From: Candidatus Omnitrophota bacterium | Lineage (GTDB): Bacteria > Omnitrophota > Gorgyraeia > 2-01-FULL-45-10 | Length of the DNA stretch: 64,000 nucleotides | Reading direction: 5' to 3' | NCBI GenBank assembly: GCA_028699255.1 | Contig: JAQVUX010000002.1 | Location: forward strand, 11,711 to 75,710 | Shown here: positions 31,336-58,692 of the stretch, piece after piece | Position numbering within the stretch: position 1 is the stretch's first letter | How the letters are laid out: each line of letters starts with the position of its first letter | Position numbers and translations under genes: made by a program | The notes under the pieces: generated by a model | Databases searched by the model: none | Told to the model about the DNA's origin: nothing | The model's input: the letters and a program-made list of their open reading frames with translations, nothing else

Positions 31336-32724
31336 ATGAAACCAACCCCGCAGGAACGCCTTATACTTTCGTTTGCGGCCGTTTCAAATTTGTCGGCCAT
31401 CCTGACTTTTATAGCGGGATGCATCGGCATATTTATAAATACTCCCGTCGTAAGGAACGCGATCCCGGGACTCGTTACGATGAAGGTCAATACCGCATTA
31501 TGCTTTATACTCGCCGGTCTTTCATTATGGCTGATTCAGATAAGCCGCAATACCAGGACGAACAGACTGATAGCGCTATGTTGTATTTCGTTGATTGCCG
31601 TGATAGCCGGCCTTACGTTTTTTGAATATATCTCCGGTATAGATATAGGCATTGATCAATTACTGATCCATGTAAATATCCCCTCGGATTTCACCGTCAA
31701 CCCCGTTCGTATGGCATTGAGTACGGTGATAACTTTTTTTCTCGTATGTTATGCCATGTTTTTAATAATATCAAAAGAGGGCCGCGGTCATTATCTGTAC
31801 CAGGTTCCGGCAATTTTTGGTATGTTGATTGCCTCGGCCGTGTTATTGGGGTACCTTTATAACGTGCCGCTTCTTTATCATTTCCCGCGCGGGAATCCGG
31901 TGATGGCATTCCATACTTCCATAGCATTTTTTATAATGTTTCCCGGAGTTATTTTTGCCCGGCCGGATACGGGGCTGATTAGTATAGTTACACGGTATAG
32001 CGCAGGAGGTCTTGTGGCCCGGAGCCTGACGCCTATCGCTATTATCGTGCCGCCGATTTTCGGTATGGCTAAGCTATTGGCCGAAAAAAGAGGTGTCATA
32101 AACAACGAGATCGGCATATCGCTGGTGGCTACAGCCAATGCGGCAGTAATAAGCGCATTTATAATATGGTTTGCGGCTTTTATAGATAAGACGGAATTAA
32201 AGCACAAAATTTTAAGAGATAAGCAAGAGAGAGAGTCGCTTTTTTTTACGACTATATTTGATAATACGCCCAATGCCGTATATATTTACGACATGACCGG
32301 AAAATTTATCGAGGCCAATCCCGCCGCCTGCAATTTATTGGGATATGAGCACGAAGTATTGCTCAAAATGTCGGCATCGAACGTAGAATCCTCCATAAAC
32401 ACTGCCCTGATATCCGATCGAATCGCGCAAGTAAAAAAGGATGGACGCATCACTTCGGATGTTATTTATAACAAAGGCGACGGGACGATTGTCAGTCTGG
32501 AAGTGAACAGTCAAATGGTGGATTTGCGCGGTGAGCAGGTTATCATGAATATAGTGCACGATATTACGCTACGCCGGCGCATTGAAGAGGCGCTAAAAAT
32601 TAAGATCAGGGAGATGGAAATAATTAATAAGACTACCGTGGATCGTGAATTGAAGATGGTTGAATTAAAGAAAAAGATAAAAGATCTCGAAGGAGAACTA
32701 GAAAAGGAGCGGCGTCATGAATAA
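31336..32724 (+). CDS. Integral-membrane sensor with C-terminal PAS domain and coiled-coil tail (no output domain)
   Basis: About 8 TM helices. PAS block (TIFDNTPNAVYIYDMTGKFIEANPAACNLLGYEHEV...SLEVNSQMVDLRGEQV). Ends in a charged coiled coil. Starts 23 nt after the NuoB-like gene. Confidence 0.65.
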   Translation: MKPTPQERLILSFAAVSNLSAILTFIAGCIGIFINTPVVRNAIPGLVTMKVNTALCFILAGLSLWLIQISRNTRTNRLIALCCISLIAVIAGLTFFEYISGIDIGIDQLLIHVNIPSDFTVNPVRMALSTVITFFLVCYAMFLIISKEGRGHYLYQVPAIFGMLIASAVLLGYLYNVPLLYHFPRGNPVMAFHTSIAFFIMFPGVIFARPDTGLISIVTRYSAGGLVARSLTPIAIIVPPIFGMAKLLAEKRGVINNEIGISLVATANAAVISAFIIWFAAFIDKTELKHKILRDKQERESLFFTTIFDNTPNAVYIYDMTGKFIEANPAACNLLGYEHEVLLKMSASNVESSINTALISDRIAQVKKDGRITSDVIYNKGDGTIVSLEVNSQMVDLRGEQVIMNIVHDITLRRRIEEALKIKIREMEIINKTTVDRELKMVELKKKIKDLEGELEKERRHE

Positions 32725-33925
32725 GAAACCTTTAGTGGTGGTTTTAATCCTGCTTTTTGTAGTTCTTGCCGGCGTTGCTGTATTCCTATTTGCGGGAAAA
32801 TTATTCGCGCCCAGGGAAGAGGTTATATTAGATCAGACCAGTAATACATTTCTCGTAAAAGGCGATGTAAAGATAAATAAGATAAGCGCGGGAGGCGGTT
32901 GGCATAAACTTGAAGCCTCTACGGTTATCGAAAAAGGAGACGTAATAGAGACCGCCGGCGAATCGACGGCCGATATAGTTATAGGCGCCAATACAGATAA
33001 GGCGATCAAGATAGGCGAGAAGAGTATCGTGGAATTCGAAGGGATCAACCCGACGTCGCTCAATTTTTCTAAAGGCAAATTACTGGTAAACGTGAAGAGG
33101 CTGGAGCCGAAGTCCTCCTTTGTGGTGAAGACACCCACCGCTATATGCGGCGCCAGAGGCACCGGATGGATGGAGGAAGCGTCTCCGGGGATGACGAAAG
33201 TATGTGTATTCGACAACTCCGTATTCGTTCGAGAACTTAATGACGCAGGGAAACCGAAGATGGGTAAACGCATTGCCAACCAGGGCACAGAGTTGATCAT
33301 ACAAAAGGGCGTTATCATAAAAGAGGTACCGCTGGGCGAACTCGACGCGCAGGTATGGCAATCCTGGGCGAAGAATGTGGAATACTTAAGAGAAGGCAAA
33401 GTCCTGGTGAACGATTTTGACAGGAAAGAAAATTTCAACAACTTAAGCGGGCCGTTCGGATCGTGGAATGTGTTCTTCTCCGACCCCAGTCAGTATTGCA
33501 GGGATGAGTTTACGGTATTGGAGAGGGTGGGCGAAAAAGGCTACGCTTTAAAACTTACTTATGATGTCGAGACATCATTCTCAGCCTATAACGGTTTCTT
33601 TACAAACCTGATGGGCATAGACATCTCCGGCTACAAGTATCTTGTATTCTCTATAAAAGGGGATAAGATAGCCGGATTTACGACCAGCGTGAATGTTGAG
33701 CTTAAGAATATGCGCCAGACGGGCCGCGCGAAGGTTGATGGTATAACGTCGGAATGGAAACGCATAGTGTTGCCGCTAAAGGATTTTGTCGGCATAAATA
33801 CGTTTAAGGATATGAAGGAAATAGTTGTTGTATTCAGCGATATAGCCGTTACCAAAAAGGTTGGAGTTGTTTATATAGACGACATCTATTTCGCAAAATA
33901 CGATCCTGACGTTAAAGGTGAGTAA
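32717..33925 (+). CDS. Single-pass membrane protein with FecR-like domain and C-terminal beta-sandwich domain
   Basis: N-terminal TM helix. FecR-family block (KGKLLVNVKRLEPKSSFVVKTPTAICGARGTGW). ATGA overlap with the PAS gene. Confidence 0.6.
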   Translation: MNKKPLVVVLILLFVVLAGVAVFLFAGKLFAPREEVILDQTSNTFLVKGDVKINKISAGGGWHKLEASTVIEKGDVIETAGESTADIVIGANTDKAIKIGEKSIVEFEGINPTSLNFSKGKLLVNVKRLEPKSSFVVKTPTAICGARGTGWMEEASPGMTKVCVFDNSVFVRELNDAGKPKMGKRIANQGTELIIQKGVIIKEVPLGELDAQVWQSWAKNVEYLREGKVLVNDFDRKENFNNLSGPFGSWNVFFSDPSQYCRDEFTVLERVGEKGYALKLTYDVETSFSAYNGFFTNLMGIDISGYKYLVFSIKGDKIAGFTTSVNVELKNMRQTGRAKVDGITSEWKRIVLPLKDFVGINTFKDMKEIVVVFSDIAVTKKVGVVYIDDIYFAKYDPDVKGE

Positions 33926-34332
33926 TGGATAGTTGCGCGGGAACCATAAAGGTTCCGAGCCGGACAAGTTCGATAAAGAAAGTTTCATCCGGGATACTTG
34001 AACAACTTTTGCCGTACAAAGTGAGCGAAGAGCGGCTCTTTGATATAACATTATGTATCGAGGAGGCGGTCAGAAACGCCATTATTCACGGCAATCGTTC
34101 CGACCTAAAATTGCAAGTGAAGGTTGATTACAGCATAGACGGTGATAATATCGCTGTGGAAGTAGAGGACGAGGGCGCCGGTTTTCAGCCGGCACGCGTT
34201 CCGGATCCTACCGAAGAATGCAATATAACTAAAGAGTCCGGCCGTGGACTGCATCTCATCGTGCGGCTTATGGACCGGGTGGAGTTTAATAAAAGAGGTA
34301 ACAGGATCAGGATGGAAAAGTCGTTGAGGTAA
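33925..34332 (+). CDS. RsbW/SpoIIAB-type anti-sigma-factor serine kinase (GHKL ATPase)
   Basis: N-box EEAVRNAIIHGN, G1 box VEDEGAGF, G2 box SGRGLHLI. 135 aa. Start overlaps the FecR-like gene stop. Confidence 0.75.
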   Translation: MDSCAGTIKVPSRTSSIKKVSSGILEQLLPYKVSEERLFDITLCIEEAVRNAIIHGNRSDLKLQVKVDYSIDGDNIAVEVEDEGAGFQPARVPDPTEECNITKESGRGLHLIVRLMDRVEFNKRGNRIRMEKSLR

Positions 34333-34342
34333 TCGCGTAGTG

Positions 34343-34505
34343 TAGGAGATAACCGTAGGAGATAACCGCGTAGGTTATTTGAGTTAAATGACTGGCCAAC
34401 CTACGCGGTTGGCGTGTAGCAGATAACCGCGTAGGTTATCTGAGTTAAATGACTGGCCAACCTACGCGGTTGACAGAGTAATTGGCCAACCTGTGCGGTT
34501 GGCGG
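34343..34505 (+). repeat. Tandem 60-nt repeat (about 2.5 copies) carrying a 13-bp inverted repeat AACCGCGTAGGTT...AACCTACGCGGTT around a TGGCCA core
   Basis: Units are 34362-34411 and 34422-34472, with a partial third unit to ~34505. A single copy recurs at 58634-58692. Confidence 0.8.
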
Positions 34506-34517
34506 AGGAGAGGTAAG

Positions 34518-34850
34518 ATGGCGGTAAAAACGGAGACAAGAGGCGAGTTGACGATCTGTTACATAGACGGCGAGATAGATATAGTGCGCAGTCCGGAGAT
34601 GAAGAAGATTTTTGATAAACTCACCGGGAAGAAGACGCCGAAGATAGTGATAGAGTTGTCGAAGGTTACGTATGTCGATTCATCGGGGCTTGCTACGCTC
34701 GTCGGTATATTGAAGAATATGCGTTCTTACGGCGGGAAGATGCGGCTTGCCGCGATGTCGCCGAAAATAAAGAGCCTCTTCGAGATAACTAAATTGGATA
34801 AGCTATTCGAGATAATGGCCAGCGAAGAAGAAGCCGTTGCGGGGTTATAG
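34518..34850 (+). CDS. STAS-domain protein (anti-sigma-factor antagonist / MlaB-like) with conserved phosphorylatable Ser motif
   Basis: SpoIIAA-like fold with the motif VTYVDSSGLATLVGIL. GGAGGAGAGG RBS. Stop overlaps the mlaE start. Confidence 0.8.
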   Translation: MAVKTETRGELTICYIDGEIDIVRSPEMKKIFDKLTGKKTPKIVIELSKVTYVDSSGLATLVGILKNMRSYGGKMRLAAMSPKIKSLFEITKLDKLFEIMASEEEAVAGL

Positions 34851-34851
34851 G

Positions 34852-35598
34852 ATGGGTTATAATACTCTGGCGCTTTTTTTCGACACCATATACTGGCTGA
34901 TCGTCGGTCCGCTGAAGAATAAATTTGTAAAAGCGGACAGTATCTTCAGCCAGATGGTATTCGCCGGTGTCGGCTCGCTTATGATAACGTCTTTCGTCGC
35001 ATTCTTCACAGGCATAGTCATAGCGATGCAGTCGGCTTATCAGCTCGCGAGGTTTGGCGCTAATATCTATGTCGCTCCGATGGTCGCGGTGGCTCTGGCA
35101 AGGGAACTTGCGCCGGTACTGACGGCACTTGTGGTTACAGGGCGCGTTGGCGCGGCAATAGCGGCGGAACTCGGCACGATGAAGGTTACCGAGCAGATAG
35201 AGGCGCTCGAGACGATGGCCTTGAATCCTGTCCGGTTTCTCGTCGTTCCGCGGTTTCTTGCGCTTCTGATTATGCTCCCATGCCTTACCGTTCTGGCGGA
35301 TATCATCGGCATATTCGGCGGCTTTCTGGTGGGTGTATTTAATCTTCATCTCGATCCTTACAGGTACATAACATTCTCATTCAAATATATGCAATGGAAA
35401 GACGTTTGGACAGGGCTTGTCAAAAGCGTTGTATTTGCGATAACGATAGCGATGGTTGGATGTCATACGGGATTAAAAACTAAGGGCGGCGCCGAAGGTG
35501 TCGGCAAAGCGACGACCATGAGCGTAGTGACAAGTTTTATACTTATAATACTTTTTGACTGCATATTGACAGGGCTATTCTATTTTACGCAAAAATAA
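34852..35598 (+). CDS. mlaE: MlaE-family ABC transporter permease
   Basis: Five TM segments. MlaE/YrbE conserved block (ELGTMKVTEQIEALETMALNPVRFLVVPRFLA). Confidence 0.8.
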   Translation: MGYNTLALFFDTIYWLIVGPLKNKFVKADSIFSQMVFAGVGSLMITSFVAFFTGIVIAMQSAYQLARFGANIYVAPMVAVALARELAPVLTALVVTGRVGAAIAAELGTMKVTEQIEALETMALNPVRFLVVPRFLALLIMLPCLTVLADIIGIFGGFLVGVFNLHLDPYRYITFSFKYMQWKDVWTGLVKSVVFAITIAMVGCHTGLKTKGGAEGVGKATTMSVVTSFILIILFDCILTGLFYFTQK

Positions 35599-35601
35599 TA
35601 T

Positions 35602-36399
35602 ATGGAAAAAGAGATAGTAATAAAAGCAGAAAATGTGGTAAAGAAATTCGGCGACAGAACCGTTCTAAGCGGCGTAAGTCTCGAAGTATATAAAGGCGAG
35701 ACCTTTGTTATAATGGGCGGCTCCGGTTGCGGCAAGAGCACGTTCCTGCGCCACCTGATAGGAGCGCTAAAACCCGATTCCGGCAAGGTCTATCTCTTGG
35801 GTAAAGATTTGAGTATTTTAAAAGAAGACGATCTGGACGGCGTAAAGAAGAAGATAGGGATGTCGTTCCAGTCATCGGCCCTTTTCGATTCGATGACGGT
35901 TGGAGAAAATGTCGCGTTGCCGCTTAAAGAACACGCGAAGATAGAGCAGAGCGTTATAGATATAGTGGTAAAGATGAAACTCGAGCTTGTCGGGCTCAGA
36001 GGCTTCGAAGATCTTATGCCGAGCCAGATATCAGGCGGCATGCGAAAACGGGTGGGCCTTGCCCGGGCGATAGTGATGGATCCGGAGATAGTATTTTACG
36101 ACGAGCCGACGGCGGGACTGGATCCGATAGTGGCAGGCGTGATAGATAAGCTTATACTGGATCTATCGCAGAAGCTTTCCATTACGAGCGTTGTCGTTAC
36201 CCATGACATGAAGAGCGTATTTTCCATAGCGAGCAGAGTTGCCATGTTGTACGAAGGTAGGGTTCTCGAAGTGGGTACGCCGGATGAGATACGCGGGAGT
36301 AAAAATCAGATGGTCCAACAGTTCGTCGCGGGCAGTCCGGACGGCCCGATAAAATTTTTCCAGCAGAAAGACGATTATTTAGAGCAGTTGATGAAATAA
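35602..36399 (+). CDS. mlaF: MlaF-family ABC transporter ATP-binding protein
   Basis: Walker A GGSGCGKST, signature LSGGMRKRV, Walker B IVFYDEP. Confidence 0.85.
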   Translation: MEKEIVIKAENVVKKFGDRTVLSGVSLEVYKGETFVIMGGSGCGKSTFLRHLIGALKPDSGKVYLLGKDLSILKEDDLDGVKKKIGMSFQSSALFDSMTVGENVALPLKEHAKIEQSVIDIVVKMKLELVGLRGFEDLMPSQISGGMRKRVGLARAIVMDPEIVFYDEPTAGLDPIVAGVIDKLILDLSQKLSITSVVVTHDMKSVFSIASRVAMLYEGRVLEVGTPDEIRGSKNQMVQQFVAGSPDGPIKFFQQKDDYLEQLMK

Positions 36400-36417
36400 G
36401 GCCAAAGGAGATGAAAC

Positions 36418-37035
36418 GTGAAGATAACCAATGAGATAAAAACAGCCGTTGTTGTGATATCCGCGATAGCTGTAGGTGTGATATTTTGGGCCAAGACGAC
36501 GGATTTTAAAACCAAACCGTATCGCATCAAAACATATTTTAACTATGCCGAGGGAGTTAAGTCCGATTCGATAGTAAAACTCTCCGGTATAGATGTGGGC
36601 AGGGTGGAGAAGATAACTTTTCAGTATCTGCCTGAGACCAAGATAGAGCTGGTGCTCACAATAAACGATATCGCTAAATTCCATGAGGACTCGGTTGCCT
36701 TCATATCGACGTCCGGCATGATAGGCGACGCCTATGTAGGCATAACGCCGGGCTCGCCCGACAAGCCTTTCGCAAAAGACGGTTCTACGCTCGCGAGCGA
36801 AGACCCTGTCGAGATGAGAAAACTGATGAAGAAGGCGGATGCGATATCCGAGAACCTCGACAAGACGCTCGCGGAAGTGAAGACGCTTGCCTCAAACGTC
36901 AATAACGTTGTTTCCGATAATAAAGCCAGGATTGATGGCATAGCGTCAAACCTGGAGGCGACGAGTGTCAATTTTAAGGAATTCAGCGAGGATATTAAGC
37001 ATCATCCATGGAAACTGCTGATGAAGGGAAAATGA
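36418..37035 (+). CDS. mlaD: MlaD-family MCE-domain protein
   Basis: N-terminal TM helix plus MCE domain (KLSGIDVGRVEKITF). Probable GTG start after an AAGGAGATG RBS. Confidence 0.8.
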   Translation: MKITNEIKTAVVVISAIAVGVIFWAKTTDFKTKPYRIKTYFNYAEGVKSDSIVKLSGIDVGRVEKITFQYLPETKIELVLTINDIAKFHEDSVAFISTSGMIGDAYVGITPGSPDKPFAKDGSTLASEDPVEMRKLMKKADAISENLDKTLAEVKTLASNVNNVVSDNKARIDGIASNLEATSVNFKEFSEDIKHHPWKLLMKGK

Positions 37036-38900
37036 CCTACAGTCCTATCAAAAATCCTTTACTCTATTTTGTTCCCATCCTGATCCTGGCTGTATCCGCG
37101 GGTTCATATTTTCGTGCCTTCGACGCCCAGGAGCTGCAAGCCCTCGATCTAAGGTTTGCTTTTCGTCCACCGTCGGGGGTTTCGGATAATATCGCGGTTA
37201 TCGAGATGGGGGACGATACTCTAAAGAAATTGGGCGATTGGCCGATCGGGCGGAATTATCACGCGCTTCTCATAAGGGCCCTTTCAGCGGCCGGCGCGCG
37301 CGCGATAGTATTCGATATATTTTTCAGCGAACCTCGTGAATATGACGAAGACCTGGAAAACGCCATGAAGGACGCGGGAAACGTATACCTGCCGTTTGTC
37401 TTCGACATTCAATCAAAAAAAACGAAAGATTGTCTCACGGCTTCAGGTATTATAGCCGGAAACCTGAACGAATTAAGTTTATCGGCAAAAGGGGAAGGGT
37501 ATATAAATGTTCCGCCCGATAATGACGGAAAATTCAGAATGGCGCCGCTTCTTATAGAATATGACGGGGCGAGACGCCCCTCCATGGCCCTGCGCGTCGC
37601 ATCCGATTATCCCGGTTTTCCCGGGATAGAGGCAGTGCCGCTCGACGAATATTCCAATATCGTGATAAACTTTTCCGGGAAATGGAAGCGGGCATTTCAT
37701 CATTACTCTTACGTTGATGTGTTGCAGTCGTATATGGCATCCGATCGGGGCGACGCTCCGATCCTTGATATGAAAGCTTTTAAGGATAAGATATGCATAA
37801 TAGGCTTGACTGCCACAGGTACGGTAGATCTGCACCCCACCCCTCTCGAGCCGCTCTATCCAACGATGGGTGTCCATGCCGAAGTGATCGATTCCATAAT
37901 TAACAAAAGATTCATAACGCGGATCGGAAGATGGCCGAACTTAGCGGTACTGATGTTCCTGGCGGCGTTTCAATCTCTGATAGCGTTAAAAATGAAACCT
38001 GTTGCCGGATTTTTAATGCTTGCGGTCGAATCGTTGTTTTTCTCCGGCGTCGCTATTTTGCTTTTCAATCTCTACGGGCTATGGATCGATCTGTTTTACC
38101 CATTGGCCGTTTTAGTAGCCGCATACCTTTTTTTTACTTTGTGTAAATACGCCGCGGAATGGAAGAGGCGTCTTATTCTTGAGAGCGAACTCGATATCGC
38201 TAAAAAGATACAGGAGAGTTTTTTGCCGAAGAGCGTACCGAGCATGGATGGGGTAGAAATAGCCGCAGGTATGGTTACGGCAAAGCAGGTTGGCGGAGAC
38301 CTGTATGATTTTGTCGATATGGGCGCCGGCAGGATAGGCATAATGATAGGGGATGTCTCCGGCAAAGGCGTGCCTGCGAGTCTTTTCATGGCGCTGTCCG
38401 CAGGCGCGTTCAGATCGTCGGCAGAGTCAGCCCCGTCGCCGGATAAAGTTTTGTCCTCACTCAATATGAAGCTTCTCAAAGAGTCCTCGTCGGGACTATT
38501 CCTGACGTCTTTCTACGCCATACTGGACGTATCCGGCAAAGAACTTGTTTACGCGAACGGTGGGCATTTACCGGCGATCCTTTTACATGAAGGTGAGAAA
38601 GCGAAATTCTTAGATACCGACGGCGGTACGCCTCTCGGCTTATTTGAAGGAAATTATCCCGCCGCGCGCGCGTCCATAGCGAAAGGTGATATAATAATAT
38701 TCTATACGGATGGCGTTACCGAGGCGATGAATGTCCGCCGCGAAATGTATGGTACCGAGCGATTGCTGAGTGTTTCCGGAAAGAACCGGATGTCCTCATC
38801 GGAAAAATTGATAGAGGCGATAAAAAAAGATGTAAAAAAATTCGAAGGCAGAGCCGGTCAGCATGACGACCTTACGATCATAGTTGTAAAAATAATATAA
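37032..38900 (+). CDS. CHASE2-sensor, multi-TM, PP2C/SpoIIE-family serine phosphatase (RsbU-like)
   Basis: N-terminal CHASE2 domain (DNIAVIEMGDDTLKKLGDWPIGRNYHA), then 3 TM helices, then a PP2C domain (GGDLYDFVD..., IGDVSGKGVPASLFMA, FYTDGVTEA). ATGA overlap with mlaD. Confidence 0.8.
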   Translation: MTYSPIKNPLLYFVPILILAVSAGSYFRAFDAQELQALDLRFAFRPPSGVSDNIAVIEMGDDTLKKLGDWPIGRNYHALLIRALSAAGARAIVFDIFFSEPREYDEDLENAMKDAGNVYLPFVFDIQSKKTKDCLTASGIIAGNLNELSLSAKGEGYINVPPDNDGKFRMAPLLIEYDGARRPSMALRVASDYPGFPGIEAVPLDEYSNIVINFSGKWKRAFHHYSYVDVLQSYMASDRGDAPILDMKAFKDKICIIGLTATGTVDLHPTPLEPLYPTMGVHAEVIDSIINKRFITRIGRWPNLAVLMFLAAFQSLIALKMKPVAGFLMLAVESLFFSGVAILLFNLYGLWIDLFYPLAVLVAAYLFFTLCKYAAEWKRRLILESELDIAKKIQESFLPKSVPSMDGVEIAAGMVTAKQVGGDLYDFVDMGAGRIGIMIGDVSGKGVPASLFMALSAGAFRSSAESAPSPDKVLSSLNMKLLKESSSGLFLTSFYAILDVSGKELVYANGGHLPAILLHEGEKAKFLDTDGGTPLGLFEGNYPAARASIAKGDIIIFYTDGVTEAMNVRREMYGTERLLSVSGKNRMSSSEKLIEAIKKDVKKFEGRAGQHDDLTIIVVKII

Positions 38901-38916
38901 AAACGGGAGGATTAAA

Positions 38917-39612
38917 ATGAAAAGATGCGTGTTTTTTTTGATTATAGCTATGGCCGTAAGCATTGTGTTTATGCCTGCGCATGTGTTTGCCGAAAATAAA
39001 TGGACGGCGCTCGTTGAGGAATCGGGTAAGGTGCTATCCGAGGTCCAGGAGATGCCGGATGATTCGATACCATCGGAACTTTTATCAAAATGTTCGGCTA
39101 TAGCGATATTTCCATCTACGATCTCGGCGGGTTTTGGTATCGGCGGGCAGTATGGGCAGGGTATTATAATGGTCAGGGATACGGCGAGCGGCAAGTGGTC
39201 GTCGCCGGCTATATTTACAATAGCGGGTGGATCTATAGGATTGCAGATAGGCGGGCAGGCGACGGATTACGTGCTTCTTATCATGAACAGGCGAAGCGTG
39301 GATGGCATCCTGCAGGGCAAATTCAAACTTGGCGTGGACGCGGACGTAGCCGCGGGGCCGGTGGGCAGGGCCGCGGAAGCCTCGACCGACATTCAGCTTA
39401 AGGGCGGCATTCTTTCATATTCACGTAGCAGGGGATTGTTTGCCGGCGCAAAACTGGGCGGATCCGTTATCGTACAGCACTGGGAGGGCGATGACGAGCT
39501 TTATGGGAAAAAGCTATCCGCCCGAGAAATATTACTCGAGAATAAGACCAAAATGCCGAAATCCGCGGACAAGATTCTTAATGTCCTGAATAAATATCCG
39601 TACGTTAAGTAA
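38917..39612 (+). CDS. Secreted SYLF (Ysc84/DUF500) lipid-binding domain protein
   Basis: Signal peptide. SYLF-type Gly-rich beta blocks (AIFPSTISAGFGIGGQYGQGI, GGSIGLQIGGQATDYVLL). Confidence 0.65.
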   Translation: MKRCVFFLIIAMAVSIVFMPAHVFAENKWTALVEESGKVLSEVQEMPDDSIPSELLSKCSAIAIFPSTISAGFGIGGQYGQGIIMVRDTASGKWSSPAIFTIAGGSIGLQIGGQATDYVLLIMNRRSVDGILQGKFKLGVDADVAAGPVGRAAEASTDIQLKGGILSYSRSRGLFAGAKLGGSVIVQHWEGDDELYGKKLSAREILLENKTKMPKSADKILNVLNKYPYVK

Positions 39613-39681: not shown

Positions 39682-42444
39682 ATGGTAACGGTCTATTTCT
39701 TTTACGGATTGGCGTTTTTGACCATGGGTGCGGTTATATTTTTGATGCCCAGGAAACAGGATTATTTTGGGCTGGATAGAGATATAAAATTCATCGGATT
39801 ATTTGGCCTATTGCATGGCCTGTATGAGTGGACCGAGCTTCTGACGTTAAGCGGAGGCTCGATGTCGATGCACGTTATACGCGTGATCCGTGGCGCGCTC
39901 CTACCGCTGTCTTTTATTGTACTTTTTGTTTTTGGCGTCAGGATACTTGTGCGGTATCGGCCTAAATTAAAAATTATATTTTTCCTGCCAATAGTTTGTT
40001 TGATAACTGTTTTAGGCGTATATATTTTCTCCAAAGATTTTACGGTTACCATGATATTTTCACGCTACCTGATTGGGGCTCCGGGGATATTCCTAACAGC
40101 CGCTGTCCTGTTAAGCGCTTTCAAAAAATTTAAAAATACCGGCTTGCCCCTAACCGTTTCGATAGGTATATACGTTTCGGGCATATTTTTTATTATTTAC
40201 GGCGTGTTCTCAGGTTTAGTTACTCCGGAATACGGATTTTTCCCGGCCTCTGTTTTTAATAATTCTAACTTTATGAAACTATTCGGCTTTCCCGTACAGT
40301 TGGTTCGTATGATATGTGCCGCTATGCTGGCGTTAGGCTTTTTTATGATGACGGGTGTTTTTAATAAAGGCGTTTCTTTTATGGCCAGGAAGACCACGAT
40401 AAAGGCCCGGCTTACACTTATAATATCCTTCTCCATATTTGTTACCATGACTCTTGGCGCGATACTTGTATATTTTTCACAGGCCAATCTATTACAGGCG
40501 TCCATAGGAAAAGAATATTTACAGATATCGCGATTGCTCAGCAATTATATAAATGAAACCATTGACGGCGAAGTAGAAGACGCAAAATCTTACGCCACAA
40601 GATCGATATGGCTAAATTTTTTGAAGGAACAGAATAATAAATATCAAGGGATGAATAGTGAAGCGATAAAAACATATTTGTTGGATACGGATAAGAAGTG
40701 GATGGGTGCAAAACCGGATAGTCCGATAATAAAAGAGTGCCTTGAAAACAGGGTAAGCGTAGGAATGGCGGAGATAGTGGCGGTAAGAAAAAGCATAGCG
40801 GAGTTATTGGCAACCGATAAATTCGGCGGTCTCGTCGCGGCATCCGGAAGATCGAGCGATTTTTATCAGGCCGATGAGGAATGGTGGCAAAAATCGTACA
40901 ATGACGGTAAAGGTAATATATTTGTCGGGGAAGCGGAACATGATGAGTCGAGCGGCATTTGGGTTATTCCTATCGCGATCCCGTTCAAAGATAAGGCGGG
41001 CGCTGTAATAGGTATCTGTAAGTACAATATTTCGTTAAATCGTCTTCTTGCCGGGATCAAAACTCTCAGTATTGGTAAGACCGGACGCGTCGCTTTGATT
41101 GACGGCGAAGGCCGCATTATATTTTATCAAAATCTTCCGCCCATGAGCAGACAGCTCTTCAGCGATGAAGAGCTTATCGGTATACGCGCGAACAAAAAGG
41201 GGTATGCTTTTTTTAATAATCCTGATCCTAACGGCGGAAAAATATTTGCGGCGTTCTCCGCTGTTAACCCGCATTACATTGTTGGAAGAGGCGTAGGATG
41301 GACGATGGTCATCCTGCAGGATGCGGATGAAACGATGGCGTCGCTTTATAAATTTATAGTTCAGCTTGTTGGTGTAGCGATCGTGCTATTGATAGTTATA
41401 ATACCCGTAGGTTCTTTTTTTGGCAACTTCCTGTCCGTTCCTATACATGAGCTTAATGTGGCCGCTGAGCATATAATGGCTGGAGATTGGAGTTATAAAT
41501 TAAATGTTAAGACCGGCGACGATCTGGAAGGATTTACGGAAGCATTTAAGTCGATGGTAAATACAGTAAAAAATAAACAGGAGGAGCTTGAAGACTTTTC
41601 GAAAAACCTTGAACGCATGGTAGAGGATCGGACTAAAGAGCTTTCCCACACCCAGGCGGCAACTCTTAATATGCTGGAGGATCTGGCCGAATCGAAAAAG
41701 GAATTGGATAAATATTCGAAGAAGCTCGAGGAGAGCCTGAGGATAAAGACAGATTTTACTTCGATGGTATCGCATGAACTAAGAACGCCGTTAGCCGCCA
41801 TCAAGGAGGGGATATCGATAGTTGCCGACGGCACTGCCGGATCCATAAACAAAGACCAGGAAGGTTTTCTCGATATAGCCAAGCGCAATGTCGACCGGCT
41901 TTCACGGCTTATAAACGACATATTGAATTTCCAGAAACTGGAAGCCGGAAAAATGGAATTTCGCTTTGCGGAGCACGATATTAACGAGGTGGTTGAGGAA
42001 GCGGGCCGCATGATGACCTCTGCGGCGAGCGGTAAAGGCCTGGAGATAAAAGCGGAGCTTGATGAGGTGCTTCCCCGCGTGAAATTCGACAAGGACAGGA
42101 TAATGGAGGTATTGATCAACCTTATTGACAATGCGATCAAATATACGGATAAGGGCGAGATAATTATTAGAACAAGCCGAGGCGGCGAAAACTTTATCAA
42201 AGTTTCTGTGAGTGACACCGGCGCGGGAATAAAAGATACAGATATCCCCAGGCTGTTTAAACAGTTTGAACAATTAGACCAGGGCTCAACCAGAAAAACC
42301 GGCAGTACAGGCCTGGGATTGGCAATATCAAAAGATATAATAAAGACCCACGGCGGAAGAATATGGGCGGAATCCACAGCGGCGGGCGCCGGGGCTACTT
42401 TTAGTTTCGTACTTCCTATTGCGGAAAGGCGAAGAAGCAGTTAA
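39682..42444 (+). CDS. Hybrid-architecture sensor histidine kinase (multi-TM N-domain, periplasmic Cache-like domain, HAMP, HisKA, HATPase_c)
   Basis: H-box SMVSHELRTPLAAI, N-box LINLIDNAIKYT, G-boxes SDTGAGI and GSTGLGLAISK. Confidence 0.85.
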   Translation: MVTVYFFYGLAFLTMGAVIFLMPRKQDYFGLDRDIKFIGLFGLLHGLYEWTELLTLSGGSMSMHVIRVIRGALLPLSFIVLFVFGVRILVRYRPKLKIIFFLPIVCLITVLGVYIFSKDFTVTMIFSRYLIGAPGIFLTAAVLLSAFKKFKNTGLPLTVSIGIYVSGIFFIIYGVFSGLVTPEYGFFPASVFNNSNFMKLFGFPVQLVRMICAAMLALGFFMMTGVFNKGVSFMARKTTIKARLTLIISFSIFVTMTLGAILVYFSQANLLQASIGKEYLQISRLLSNYINETIDGEVEDAKSYATRSIWLNFLKEQNNKYQGMNSEAIKTYLLDTDKKWMGAKPDSPIIKECLENRVSVGMAEIVAVRKSIAELLATDKFGGLVAASGRSSDFYQADEEWWQKSYNDGKGNIFVGEAEHDESSGIWVIPIAIPFKDKAGAVIGICKYNISLNRLLAGIKTLSIGKTGRVALIDGEGRIIFYQNLPPMSRQLFSDEELIGIRANKKGYAFFNNPDPNGGKIFAAFSAVNPHYIVGRGVGWTMVILQDADETMASLYKFIVQLVGVAIVLLIVIIPVGSFFGNFLSVPIHELNVAAEHIMAGDWSYKLNVKTGDDLEGFTEAFKSMVNTVKNKQEELEDFSKNLERMVEDRTKELSHTQAATLNMLEDLAESKKELDKYSKKLEESLRIKTDFTSMVSHELRTPLAAIKEGISIVADGTAGSINKDQEGFLDIAKRNVDRLSRLINDILNFQKLEAGKMEFRFAEHDINEVVEEAGRMMTSAASGKGLEIKAELDEVLPRVKFDKDRIMEVLINLIDNAIKYTDKGEIIIRTSRGGENFIKVSVSDTGAGIKDTDIPRLFKQFEQLDQGSTRKTGSTGLGLAISKDIIKTHGGRIWAESTAAGAGATFSFVLPIAERRRSS

Positions 42445-42460
42445 ATCTAAAGGAGATGAT

Positions 42461-42850
42461 ATGGCAGGAGAATACAAGATATTGGTTGTTGATGATGAAA
42501 AAGACCTGTTGGAGACTGTAAAGTTCCGATTGTCGCACTCAGGGTATAGTGTGGTAACGGCGGAGGATGGAGCTGAAGCGCTCGAAAAAGCGCGGACAGA
42601 AAAACCGGATCTGATAATGCTCGATCTCATGTTGCCTAAGCTCGATGGATACAAAGTATGCAGTATCCTGAAAAAGGATTCTCAGTATTCCGGTATACCT
42701 GTTATAATATTCTCGGCCAGGGCCCAGGAAGAAGACATAAGGCTTGCTAAAGAGACGGGCGCGGATGAATATGTTACGAAGCCGTTCGAACCGCAGGAAT
42801 TGCTGGGCAAGATCAGGGAACTTTTGAGTAAAAGAGCAAAGGGGGAGTGA
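42461..42850 (+). CDS. Single-domain response regulator (CheY-like receiver)
   Basis: KILVVDDE...DLIMLDLMLPKLDG...VTKPF carries the receiver Asp and Lys positions. AAAGGAG RBS. Confidence 0.85.
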   Translation: MAGEYKILVVDDEKDLLETVKFRLSHSGYSVVTAEDGAEALEKARTEKPDLIMLDLMLPKLDGYKVCSILKKDSQYSGIPVIIFSARAQEEDIRLAKETGADEYVTKPFEPQELLGKIRELLSKRAKGE

Positions 42851-43296
42851 TGAAGTATATTTTAACTGTGCTATTGGCGTCCATCTTTCTAAGCGGCTGT
42901 GCGTCGTCGCTGAAAGAGGTTTCGAAAAAGCAGTTCTCGCCGGTAGAGATATTGCGTGCCGCCATAGGTAATTCGACATTGAGCGTAGAGGAGGCCCGCA
43001 AGACCGCGCTTGTAAAAGTATTCAAATATGATTATCAGGCATGCTACGCGAAGGTAGAGGGTATCCTGAAAACCATGCCGAACATTTCGATATATTATCA
43101 GGACGAGGGAATGATAGCGGTATTTTATTTAAATCCTAATACTACACCGGTAGGTATGTTCTTTACAAAAATCGACGATGGTAATACAAAAGTCGAGATA
43201 TCGTCGCCAGCTTCACCGGCCAAGGAGTGGGTTGCAAAAAACGTGTTTTCCGAGACGGCACTGCCAGCGGAAATTATCAAAAAACCCAGATATTGA
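42847..43296 (+). CDS. Lipoprotein of unknown function
   Basis: Lipobox LSGC after an N-terminal hydrophobic segment. No recognisable domain. Confidence 0.5.
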   Translation: MMKYILTVLLASIFLSGCASSLKEVSKKQFSPVEILRAAIGNSTLSVEEARKTALVKVFKYDYQACYAKVEGILKTMPNISIYYQDEGMIAVFYLNPNTTPVGMFFTKIDDGNTKVEISSPASPAKEWVAKNVFSETALPAEIIKKPRY

Positions 43297-43330: not shown

Positions 43331-43407
43331 GCGCCCGTAGCTCAACTGGATAGAGTGAGTGGCTTCGAACCACTAGGTCGCAGGTTCGACTCCTGCCGGG
43401 CGCGCCA
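43331..43407 (+). tRNA. tRNA-Arg (anticodon TCG), CCA encoded
   Basis: Cloverleaf folded by hand. Acceptor GCGCCCG/CGGGCGC, D-stem GCTC/GAGT, anticodon stem AGTGG/CCACT with loop CTTCGAA, T-arm GCAGG-TTCGACT-CCTGC. Confidence 0.85.
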
Positions 43408-43528: not shown

Positions 43529-43613
43529 GCGGACGTGGTGGAACTGGCAGACACGTACGGCTTAGGACCGTATGCCGCAAGGCTTGAGAGTTCAACTCTC
43601 TCCGTCCGCACCA
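43529..43613 (+). tRNA. tRNA-Leu (anticodon TAG), class II with long variable arm, CCA encoded
   Basis: Acceptor GCGGACG/CGTCCGC, anticodon stem TACGG/CCGTA with loop CTTAGGA, variable arm GCCGCAAGGC, T-arm GAGAG-TTCAACT-CTCTC. Confidence 0.85.
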
Positions 43614-43889: not shown

Positions 43890-43964
43890 GCGGCGGTAAT
43901 TCAGTGGTAGAATGCGACCTTGCCAAGGTCGATGTCGTGGGTTCGAACCCCATCCGCCGCTCCA
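43890..43964 (+). tRNA. tRNA-Gly (anticodon GCC), CCA encoded
   Basis: Acceptor GCGGCGG/CCGCCGC, D-arm ATTC-AGTGGTA-GAAT, anticodon stem CGACC/GGTCG with loop TTGCCAA, T-arm GTGGG-TTCGAAC-CCCAT. Confidence 0.85.
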
Positions 43965-44211: not shown

Positions 44212-44287
44212 GCCCGCATAGCTCAATTGGCAGAGCAGGACACTCTTAATGTCAAGGTTCCAAGTTCGATTCTTGGTGCGGGCACCA
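44212..44287 (+). tRNA. tRNA-Lys (anticodon CTT), CCA encoded
   Basis: Acceptor GCCCGCA/TGCGGGC, D-arm GCTC-AATTGGCA-GAGC, anticodon loop CTCTTAA, T-arm CCAAG-TTCGATT-CTTGG. The 27-43 pair is a G-A mismatch. Confidence 0.8.
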
Positions 44288-57981: not shown

Positions 57982-58647
57982 ATGAAAAAGGATGCGGTAG
58001 ATAATTTTATTGTCTTCTTCGACTTCGATAATACTATCACTACCATCGACGTTATAGATGACATACTCGAGCGGTTTTCAGATAACGACGGCTGGAAGGC
58101 CCTCGAACGGAAATGGCAGAACGAAGAGATAGGCTCCCGTGAATGCCTTAAGGGGCAGATCGAAGGCGTGAGGGTATCCAGGGATAAGCTGGATGATTAT
58201 TTGTCCACCGTAAAGATAGACCCGTATTTTAAAAAACTGCTTAATCTACTCGAATCCCGCAAGATACCGTTCCTGATAGTGAGTGATAATTTCGATTATA
58301 TGCTTAACGGTATACTTAAGAAGAACGGTATATCCGGAGTGGAGACTTATTGTAATAAAGTCGATTTTCGGGACGAGTGGTTTGTGCCGAGTTTCCCGCA
58401 TTCGAACGCGAAGTGCGGCGATTGCGCCAATTGCAAAAAGACGCACATATTAGCGAAGAGACGCCAGGGCACAAAAGCCATCTATGTAGGTGATGGGCGA
58501 TCCGATGTATGCGCGTCAAAGATTTCCGATGTGGTGTTCGCAAAGGGTTATCTGAGGAAGCTTTTTAAGGAAGAAGGGTTGCCTCACGTAGCGATCGATA
58601 GTTTGAAAGATGTCTATGAATATTTTGCAGGAGAAATAACCGCGTAG
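57982..58647 (+). CDS. HAD-IB family phosphatase (MtnX-like 2-hydroxy-3-keto-5-methylthiopentenyl-1-phosphate phosphatase fold)
   Basis: FFDFDNTIT (motif I), VSDNF (motif II), VGDGRSD (motif IV). Its stop codon lies inside the 58634-58692 palindromic repeat. Confidence 0.65.
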   Translation: MKKDAVDNFIVFFDFDNTITTIDVIDDILERFSDNDGWKALERKWQNEEIGSRECLKGQIEGVRVSRDKLDDYLSTVKIDPYFKKLLNLLESRKIPFLIVSDNFDYMLNGILKKNGISGVETYCNKVDFRDEWFVPSFPHSNAKCGDCANCKKTHILAKRRQGTKAIYVGDGRSDVCASKISDVVFAKGYLRKLFKEEGLPHVAIDSLKDVYEYFAGEITA

Positions 58648-58692
58648 GTTATTTGGGTAAAATAATTGGCCAGCCCACGCGGTTGGTATAGG
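58634..58692 (+). repeat. Single copy of the AACCGCGTAGGTT-palindrome repeat unit (same family as 34343-34505)
   Basis: AAATAACCGCGTAGGTTATTTGGGTAAAATAATTGGCCAGCCCACGCGGTTGG. The arm has one G-U wobble and one mismatch. Sits between the HAD gene stop and the RBS of the aminotransferase gene. Confidence 0.7.

Follow-up and report, generated by a model that had tools for sequence, protein, structure and literature searches.

We examined a 64,000-nucleotide (nt) stretch of DNA, referred to throughout as the window, from a Candidatus Omnitrophota bacterium (GCA_028699255.1, contig JAQVUX010000002.1, positions 11,711-75,710 of the forward strand), in which the genes for an Mla-type lipid ATP-binding cassette (ABC) transporter are bracketed by genes for a partner-switching module. 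The open reading frame (ORF) map places them within a run of co-directional, closely spaced genes between 31.3 and 39.6 kb, all on the + strand (Table 1). Gene products were assigned to families by Pfam and NCBIfam profile searches, each score being compared with the cut-off of the family concerned. A first-pass annotation of the DNA had described a Ser kinase, a STAS protein with a DSSGL motif and a CHASE2-PP2C phosphatase at the positions listed in Table 1, and all three were recovered there. Partner switching involves three types of protein (GHKL kinase, STAS protein carrying D-S-(S/T)-G, PP2C phosphatase), all of which are present with intact motifs, and the transporter genes supply the MlaE, the MlaF-type ATPase and the MCE-domain MlaD that define the MlaFED family. 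We suggest, with the chances about evenly balanced, that the operon of this Mla-type lipid ABC transporter incorporates a phosphorylation switch, and that this holds for every Omnitrophota locus recovered.

The genes of the module and the transporter are tightly packed. The stop codon of the FecR-domain gene and the start codon of the kinase gene share 1 nt (33925), and the mlaD stop and phosphatase start share an ATGA (37032-37035), the junction sequence agreeing with the overlap described earlier. The other overlap reported in the first-pass annotation depends on the choice of start codon: the STAS stop (TAG, 34848-34850) lies within mlaE only if mlaE begins at TTG 34837, whereas use of the alternative ATG 34852 leaves a 1-nt gap after STAS. 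The STAS and mlaE genes are tightly coupled under either start, and the start/stop overlaps in the block indicate translational coupling.

Table 1. Genes of the partner-switching and Mla locus and its immediate neighbors (window coordinates; aa, amino acids).
Feature	Position	Strand	Supporting match
Membrane protein with PAS domain	31336..32724	+	Pfam PAS_9, PAS_8, PAS_4 at residues 303-415
FecR-domain protein	32717..33925	+	Pfam FecR 34.3 bits, residues 75-169
RsbW/SpoIIAB-like GHKL Ser kinase, 135 aa	33925..34332	+	HATPase_c_2 96.1 bits (cut-off 27.4)
STAS protein, 110 aa	34518..34850	+	Pfam STAS 77.4 bits (cut-off 22.6)
MlaE permease	34837..35598	+	Pfam MlaE 273 bits; TIGR00056 254.6 bits (cut-off 212.2)
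MlaF-type ABC ATPase	35602..36399	+	ABC_tran 112 bits
MlaD (MCE) protein, 205 aa	36418..37035	+	Pfam MlaD 59.6 bits (cut-off 25.1)
CHASE2-PP2C phosphatase	37032..38900	+	CHASE2 174.5 bits (residues 19-310); SpoIIE/PP2C 166.1 bits (residues 432-621)
Ysc84/SYLF-domain protein	38917..39612	+	Pfam Ysc84 123.6 bits

Conservation of the gene order across Omnitrophota

The arrangement was compared with 82 non-redundant Omnitrophota loci whose STAS proteins are 48-81% identical to that of the window. Each locus (numbered with the prefix L) covers the region within 10 kb on either side of the STAS gene, as far as its contig reaches, and was annotated by phmmer with the window proteins as queries; the units compared are contigs and not whole genomes. 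A protein collection yielded 908 STAS relatives, among which the best matches with a source name all come from Candidatus Omnitrophota/Omnitrophica, and in a scan of one genome per species, from which the best 80 of 214 STAS matches were taken, those that could be placed all belong to Omnitrophota; record titles reading 'Uncultured Planctomycetia' and, once, 'Eisenbacteria' are probably misnomers. In 81/81 loci the kinase gene is the immediate 5' neighbor of STAS, mlaE follows STAS in 78/80, the mlaE-F-D series is found in 66/68, and the CHASE2-PP2C gene lies 3' of mlaD in 58/63, with 0-4 genes between. The exceptions involving mlaE or mlaEFD look like gene-caller artifacts, as three of these four loci contain the missing genes by phmmer (the fourth is unchecked), and wherever a locus extends far enough, the gene immediately 5' of mlaE is STAS. 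Median intergenic gaps within the block are 13-25 nt. In addition to the scan, the kinase-STAS-MlaE-ABC-MlaD order was found in four distinct contexts with unrelated flanks. The operon is also present on the 442-kb contig JAMWCX010000002.1 of a near-complete Omnitrophota genome (GCA_023818895.1). These counts constitute the synteny survey that the first-pass annotation had proposed, and the recurrence of the gene order in 82 loci places the arrangement far beyond chance. The proteins themselves diverge to different extents, with median identities to the window of 75% for MlaF, 69% for MlaE, 56% for MlaD, 55% for STAS, 45% for the kinase and 44% for the phosphatase.

In most loci, a housekeeping series is syntenic upstream of the kinase (purH-folC-mnmE-folE (GTP cyclohydrolase I)-DUF212-LysM/YkuD L,D-transpeptidase-accA; e.g. 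L001:1620-9570), and accA is the immediate 5' neighbor of the kinase in 64 loci, a position that it does not hold in the window. Such a long block of shared neighbors, with accA adjoining the kinase in the absence of an obvious functional link and leuS-comEA-comEC following downstream in some loci, would fit a reading in which the synteny is frozen and the genes are not functionally coupled, the module controlling instead, for example, a nearby GAF-HD protein or a diguanylate cyclase. A GAF-HD gene does follow the phosphatase gene in 15 loci. We nonetheless consider frozen synteny very improbable. The upstream neighbors differ in the window, L003, L005, L008, L009, L014 and L034, where they include response regulators (L003), an AraC-type regulator (L005), and, in the window, a hydrogenase cluster plus a FecR gene, yet the kinase-to-mlaD block is intact in each, which suggests that it behaves or moves as a unit. 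Where rearrangement has broken the region, the break lies after mlaD or at the kinase's 5' edge, and none falls within kinase-STAS-E-F-D; the start/stop overlaps point to translational coupling; and a STAS protein beside an Mla transporter has an established function in E. coli (PMC7367683, PMC5016091). Separately, the idea that the kinase-STAS pair serves accA was rejected as the main reading, because the block is intact in the window and in several other loci that lack an adjoining accA.

The region between mlaD and the phosphatase gene is more variable. FecR genes are found there in about half of the related loci, and in 27 loci (L001, L012, L018, L027, L028 and some 20 others; e.g. L027:14022-15077) a conserved family of ~351 aa is encoded between the FecR and CHASE2-PP2C genes. 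This family has no homolog in the window and matches 'putative beta-barrel porin 2' weakly and below threshold; a role in the outer membrane, as partner to either the sensor or the short MlaD, is conceivable. In L003, whose contig is also that of L033, all that follows mlaD is a PP2C remnant of 67-76 aa (L003:12784-13014), while the kinase and STAS genes are intact, and no phosphatase gene was found within 7.5 kb after mlaD in L055, L060, L066 and L067.

Sequence features of the kinase and phosphatase

The solved relatives of the kinase are RsbW (6m36) and SpoIIAB (1th8). Its N-box residues E46/E47/N51/G56 and its G2 motif G106-R107-G108 are conserved in 81/81 orthologs, and the G1 motif D82-x-G84-x-G86 in 80/81; from these motifs the kinase is predicted to be active. 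It scores below the cut-offs of both equivalog models (51.4 vs 135 bits for SpoIIAB TIGR01925 and 44.4 vs 145 for RsbW NF003144), and its N-terminal 38 residues are poorly conserved, with a mean top-residue frequency of 0.43 compared with 0.63 for the rest of the protein. In SpoIIAB and RsbW, the N-terminal region forms the dimer and sigma interface. The best match of the kinase in a sequence search of the PDB is a 304-aa protein named 'SenB' (9qih_A; 40.7 bits over kinase residues 64-134), for which a literature search found no description.

The phosphatase consists of a CHASE2 domain, a hydrophobic stretch in which transmembrane segments were identified by eye, and a SpoIIE-type PP2C domain that we read as cytoplasmic; in the described family, the CHASE2 domain is extracytoplasmic. 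The PP2C domain has solved relatives in the RsbU-like domain of Rv1364c, RssB and SpoIIE. Its metal-binding aspartates are conserved almost throughout (D423, D441 and D560 in 53/53 orthologs, D612 in 52/53 and D613 in 51/53). The FecR-domain protein encoded upstream of the kinase contains an N-terminal hydrophobic anchor or signal, judged by eye, and an uncharacterized C-terminal region of ~200 aa. FecR and CHASE2 genes are also paired in the Burkholderia BiofilmReg operon (PMC5192318), and because the pairing recurs there, FecR-domain partners probably assist CHASE2 sensing. We read the FecR-domain protein of the window as a probable periplasmic co-sensor of the CHASE2 phosphatase.

The STAS protein and its relation to MlaB

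The DSSGL motif of the STAS protein corresponds to residues D54-S55-S56-G57-L58 and belongs to a stretch, extending through A59-T60, that together with Y52 is invariant in 83/83 sequences. The predicted phospho-acceptor equivalent is S55, the first Ser of the motif. Its counterpart in G. stearothermophilus SpoIIAA is a Ser for which one crystal form carries Ala, and we take this Ser to be S58 in B. subtilis numbering. In E. coli MlaB, a weak match without gaps pairs it with position 52 (T52). STAS is more constrained than the kinase, the phosphatase or MlaD, as a fraction of 0.36 of its columns is at least 90% conserved, versus 0.21 for the kinase, 0.20 for the phosphatase and 0.17 for MlaD; helices α-2 and α-3 are its most conserved elements.

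The relationship of this protein to MlaB depends on whether it is judged by its sequence and fold or by the position of its gene. It scores 86 bits against the anti-sigma-factor antagonist model TIGR00377 (cut-off 53.45), whereas its score against the NCBIfam MlaB model NF033618 is 32.6 bits, below the cut-off of 90, and E. coli MlaB is matched with E = 0.068 in a sequence search of the PDB. When its AlphaFold2 model (predicted local distance difference test score, pLDDT, 86.9) was compared with the PDB by Foldseek, RsbV, SpoIIAA and TM1442 matched at TM 0.86-0.93, with a root-mean-square deviation of 1.0-1.6 Å and ~30% identity, while the solved MlaB structures, which share the STAS fold, matched at TMq 0.59-0.62 (7ch7_E and 6xgy_B, ranks 42 and 49), with E. 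coli MlaB in 42nd place. By position, in turn, the gene is a STAS-only gene in an operon with mlaE, mlaF and mlaD, which is how MlaB was defined by synteny in a published survey (Grasekamp et al., PMC10665443). The supplement of that survey calls the STAS genes KJJ84113.1 and KPK42235.1 of two Omnitrophica genomes MlaB, each of which precedes consecutive accessions given as MlaE, MlaF and MlaD; the survey does not mention a kinase or phosphatase (PMC10665443). The suggestion in the first-pass annotation that STAS is probably MlaB is thus upheld by position and analogy and is at odds with the sequence scores; the predicted structure shares the STAS fold with MlaB (TM ~0.6) and is closer to RsbV/SpoIIAA. 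On the strength of its position and likely role, the protein is plausibly MlaB.

STAS and MlaE domains are fused in a single polypeptide in other organisms (PMC5016091). No STAS-MlaE or STAS-MlaF fusion was found among the 82 loci, where the longer 'STAS' ORFs are artifacts of N-terminal ORF extension. Five loci encode a second STAS paralog of 121 aa near the CHASE2-PP2C gene (L046:18418-18801, L048:12297-12662, L052:18261-18626, L053:9572-9937 and L083:17472-17837), suggesting that the phosphatase may act on more than one substrate in that sub-clade.

The transporter subunits

Among solved structures, the ATPase is most closely related to the MlaF proteins from A. baumannii, P. aeruginosa and E. 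coli, with which it aligns end to end. The alignment to E. coli MlaF is free of gaps through the Mla-specific C-terminal extension, within which the E. coli residues Tyr261, Leu265 and Leu266 insert into the MlaF-MlaB groove (PMC7367683). The counterparts of Tyr261 and Leu265 are Y259 and L263, which are kept in 71/72 and 69/72 orthologs, respectively. The Walker A and B motifs show little or no variation. At 242.9 bits, the protein falls below the E. coli-type equivalog cut-off of 441, and it is therefore better described as MlaF-like than as the proteobacterial equivalog; an exact-sequence look-up of the window MlaF returned no identical record. MlaD likewise scores below its equivalog cut-off (TIGR04430, 77.5 vs 135 bits). 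It is short in the window and in related loci (~197-235 aa), without a long helical or beta-barrel extension, and a published survey found short MlaD to be essentially confined to Proteobacteria (PMC10665443). Neither mlaC nor mlaA was seen in the operon, although no search was aimed at either gene.

A proposed phosphorylation switch on the transporter

Phosphoregulation of MlaB at Thr52 was raised as a possibility in 2016 and again in 2020, in neither case with a kinase (PMC5016091, PMC7367683). In E. coli, Thr52 is located close to the middle of the interface between MlaF and MlaB, its replacement by Glu weakens MlaF binding (PMC7367683), and the T52A substitution abolishes ATPase activity (PMC5016091). 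Because in Bacillus the equivalent residue is the target of just these types of kinase and phosphatase, both of which the operon encodes, we propose a mechanism that has, in our estimation, a roughly equal prospect of being right or wrong: reversible Ser phosphorylation of STAS would directly gate the assembly or ATPase activity of the MCE/Mla transporter, with the kinase adding the phosphate and the CHASE2(+FecR) PP2C phosphatase removing it. It would be the first partner-switching-type module with a transporter as its output. Specifically, unphosphorylated STAS would bind MlaF's helical subdomain in the manner of E. coli MlaB, and would stabilize the MlaF dimer on MlaE, permitting ATPase activity. 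Phosphorylation of Ser55 at the MlaF interface by the adjacent RsbW-like kinase would then release STAS and turn the transporter down. The CHASE2-PP2C phosphatase, probably acting with the FecR-domain protein, would sense an envelope or periplasmic cue and remove the phosphate, turning the transporter on again.

The mechanism also predicts that STAS binds the kinase and MlaF in a mutually exclusive manner. In SpoIIAA, the kinase binds the helical region, as seen in SpoIIAA-SpoIIAB complexes. In E. coli, it is the helical face of MlaB that binds MlaF (PMC7367683). Exclusive binding is expected because the same STAS face serves MlaF in E. coli and the kinase in Bacillus. The proposal in the first-pass annotation that partner switching gates the Mla transporter is in this way supported by the anatomy of the operon, its phylum-wide linkage, the conserved motifs, the MlaF contact residues and the lack of a linked sigma factor in the regions searched, while what we infer is the gating itself, the binding of STAS to MlaF, which way the effect runs and what kind of signal is sensed.

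The same genes could be wired differently, such that the kinase itself inhibits MlaF or MlaE and unphosphorylated STAS, produced by the CHASE2-PP2C phosphatase, titrates it off, with MlaFED functioning without a STAS subunit. This scheme follows canonical partner-switching logic with MlaF in place of sigma, and the conservation of the operon fits it equally well; MlaEFD without MlaB is, moreover, the common and probably ancestral form (PMC10665443). It is improbable, as binding of a GHKL anti-sigma kinase to an ABC ATPase would be without known precedent and, its catalytic boxes aside, the kinase is the protein under least constraint. Furthermore, the contact documented in E. coli is between the STAS protein and MlaF, with the equivalent of the phospho-site as its central residue (PMC7367683).

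Search for a linked sigma factor and evidence against the proposed switch

The first-pass annotation had stated that no sigma factor is present. Within the 64-kb window, jackhmmer searches of all ORFs of at least 50 aa with RpoD region 2-4 and ECF seeds detected no sigma-70-family gene; for the hand-typed RpoD seed, the data offered no positive control. A Pfam scan of 30 ORFs of the window, among them all those of 140-330 aa except a 149-aa ORF at 42847-43296 (no Pfam match), also detected none, in agreement with the earlier statement. In the flanks within 10 kb of STAS in the 82 loci, the sole sigma-70-family gene detected is an ECF gene in L003, located ~7 kb upstream with its own zf-HC2 anti-sigma neighbor. 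A Pfam census of 83 sigma-sized, non-housekeeping neighbor ORFs recovered this gene and no other sigma factor.

Several observations weigh against a switch that acts on the transporter. By its sequence and predicted fold, STAS is a canonical RsbV/SpoIIAA-type protein and no ortholog of proteobacterial MlaB. Five loci are without a linked phosphatase, and because the phylum-wide synteny includes unrelated housekeeping genes, adjacency is weaker evidence here than it would otherwise be. In MlaF, the equivalent of Leu266 (position 264) is not conserved, being T, I, M or V. A short C-terminal extension occurs on the MlaF of Veillonella, where there is no MlaB (PMC10665443), so that the extension alone is no proof of a STAS partner. 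A mirror-tree analysis of 50 loci gave the largest STAS partial correlation with MlaF (0.22, followed by 0.19 for CP and 0.17 for MlaE), which is a small value that carries no significance test. Since the loci are contigs, an unlinked target of the kinase is possible. Finally, in Chlamydiota, RsbU/RsbW/RsbV operate without a dedicated alternative sigma factor, RsbW forms complexes with sigma-66, and the module is reported to regulate the availability of this housekeeping sigma (PMC11619594).

The Chlamydiota precedent leads to the strongest rival explanation. Here, the kinase would be an anti-sigma factor for an unlinked or housekeeping sigma, STAS its antagonist and the CHASE2-PP2C protein an RsbU-like sensor, with the Mla genes placed beside them as members of a shared envelope-homeostasis transcription unit, co-expressed and ungated. 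The resemblance of STAS to RsbV and SpoIIAA in sequence and fold suits such a module, as do the solved relatives of the kinase, the placement of Omnitrophota and Chlamydiota in the same PVC group by the NCBI taxonomy, and the restriction of the survey to 10 kb on either side of STAS. We regard it as unlikely. The rsb genes of C. trachomatis are not described in an mla operon, rsbV2 lying 5' of miaA (PMC11619594), whereas the genes described here bracket mlaEFD with start/stop overlaps in 82 loci, in a block that survives changes of upstream neighbor. The kinase also lies far under the RsbW and SpoIIAB cut-offs (44 vs 145 and 51 vs 135 bits), and the poor conservation of its N-terminal 38 residues would be unexpected if the kinase gripped a highly conserved sigma factor, as this region is the dimer and sigma interface in SpoIIAB and RsbW. 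Even if this rival explanation were true, the genes would still encode a phylum-wide, envelope-linked signaling module.

Comparison with known systems

A literature search that combined MlaB, MlaE and MlaF with partner switching, RsbW, RsbV, serine kinase and Omnitrophota did not find this wiring described, consistent with the earlier comment that it has not been characterized. The closest counterpart of the transporter is E. coli MlaFEDB, which likewise has a STAS-only gene in the operon with MlaE, MlaF and MlaD, Tyr and Leu contacts in MlaF's C-terminal extension, and a residue (T52) at the position of the putative phospho-site S55. The two differ in that the STAS protein here is RsbV/SpoIIAA-like and not a member of the MlaB family, and in that its gene lies 5' of mlaE, the E. 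coli gene being the 3'-terminal one of its operon (PMC10665443). There is also a dedicated kinase here, with a sensor phosphatase in most genomes, whereas the E. coli papers report no kinase. On the signaling side, the Bacillus RsbU/RsbV/RsbW-sigmaB and SpoIIE/SpoIIAA/SpoIIAB-sigmaF systems consist of the same three protein types, whose catalytic motifs are intact in the module described here. Unlike these systems, the Omnitrophota module has no linked sigma gene in the 82 loci apart from the ECF gene of L003, brackets an ABC transporter, employs a kinase that scores below the RsbW and SpoIIAB equivalog cut-offs, and includes a phosphatase with a CHASE2 membrane sensor.

The RsbU-RsbV1/V2-RsbW module of Chlamydiota is similar in that it belongs to the PVC group, contains a transmembrane phosphatase with a periplasmic sensor, occurs phylum-wide and lacks a dedicated alternative sigma factor (PMC11619594). 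It differs in that its reported output is sigma-66, its genes are not described in an mla operon and its sensor is not reported as CHASE2 (PMC11619594). In the Burkholderia BiofilmReg operon, the gene for a FecR-domain envelope protein stands beside a CHASE2 sensor, as in the window and about half of the loci, with an output formed by a histidine kinase and a response regulator rather than by a PP2C phosphatase (PMC5192318).

Partner switching with outputs other than sigma factors is already known. The BtrU/V/W proteins of Bordetella control type III secretion. Non-sigma outputs are also described for Anabaena HenR with a STAS-domain glycosyltransferase (PMC13555669) and for Vibrio SypE/SypA (PMC10120452). 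As in the switch that we propose, STAS phosphorylation in these three systems controls envelope or secretion machinery and not a sigma factor; for none of them has an effect on an ABC transporter subunit, or a place inside an mla operon, been reported. With both non-sigma partner switching and MlaB established, the proposed wiring would extend known kinds of regulation and would not create a new category.

The operon bears on how Mla lipid transporters are controlled post-translationally, as it supplies a candidate kinase and phosphatase for the phosphoregulation of MlaB. The five to six proteins that it defines would allow the hypothesis of 2016 to be put to a direct test in vitro. Should the proposed switch be correct, partner switching would reach from sigma factors to the direct control of an ABC transporter, and MlaB phosphoregulation, hypothesized but never demonstrated in E. 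coli, would have a natural example. CHASE2, an orphan sensor domain, would be tied to envelope lipid homeostasis, and the switch would be a core conserved trait of Omnitrophota, an uncultivated phylum of very small bacteria.

A repeated hairpin in the spacer and the neighboring genes

In the window, 185 nt separate the kinase and STAS genes, compared with a median gap of 13 nt in other Omnitrophota loci. The spacer is filled by a duplicated hairpin element (34340..34507) composed of two tandem units of 57-61 nt that are 96% identical, followed by a third half-copy. Each unit has perfect inverted arms of 13 nt, AACCGCGTAGGTT and AACCTACGCGGTT, and the first of these 13-mers occurs five times in the window versus 0.04 copies expected by chance; a HAD-phosphatase ORF (57982-58647) carries the fifth copy (58638-58650) at its 3' end. 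The RNA fold predicted for the spacer element has an energy of -72 kcal/mol (z = -5), and an Rfam search of 34340-34507 returned no family match. Because the median gap in the other loci is so short, the spacer looks like a REP/MITE-like insertion in the operon. This element, which is specific to the window, may uncouple the expression of the kinase from that of STAS.

Several of the genes flanking the module are likewise particular to the window. The PAS-domain protein encoded upstream is polytopic, with a hydrophobic N-terminal half and a cytoplasmic PAS domain (topology read by eye), and is without an output domain. The stop of its gene overlaps the start of the FecR-domain gene by 8 nt. 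No homolog was found in the 82 related loci by phmmer, and this window-specific neighbor is a possible extra input to the module. Downstream, the SYLF gene starts 16 nt after the phosphatase gene and encodes a protein with an N-terminal signal-like sequence, identified by eye, that scores 61.6 bits against the NCBIfam model for BPSL1445-family SYLF-domain lipoproteins (cut-off 200). It too is specific to the window, phmmer having found no homolog in the 82 related loci. The SYLF gene is followed by genes for a 920-aa dCache-HAMP histidine kinase and a stand-alone receiver protein (39682-42850); with the PAS membrane protein upstream, these make the surroundings of the module signaling-rich, a feature specific to the window.

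Directly upstream of the module (24398-31313) is a cluster for a complex-I-like, membrane-bound [NiFe]-hydrogenase, which by our reading belongs to group 4 (Mbh/Ech/Hyf-like). It encodes two Proton_antipo_M proteins, NADHdh, a fused 30-kDa/49-kDa/NiFeSe large subunit and a 20-kDa small subunit. Beyond the response-regulator gene and the small ORF at 42847-43296, a stretch without a long ORF is occupied by four tRNA genes (43331-43404, 43529-43610, 43890-43961 and 44212-44284).

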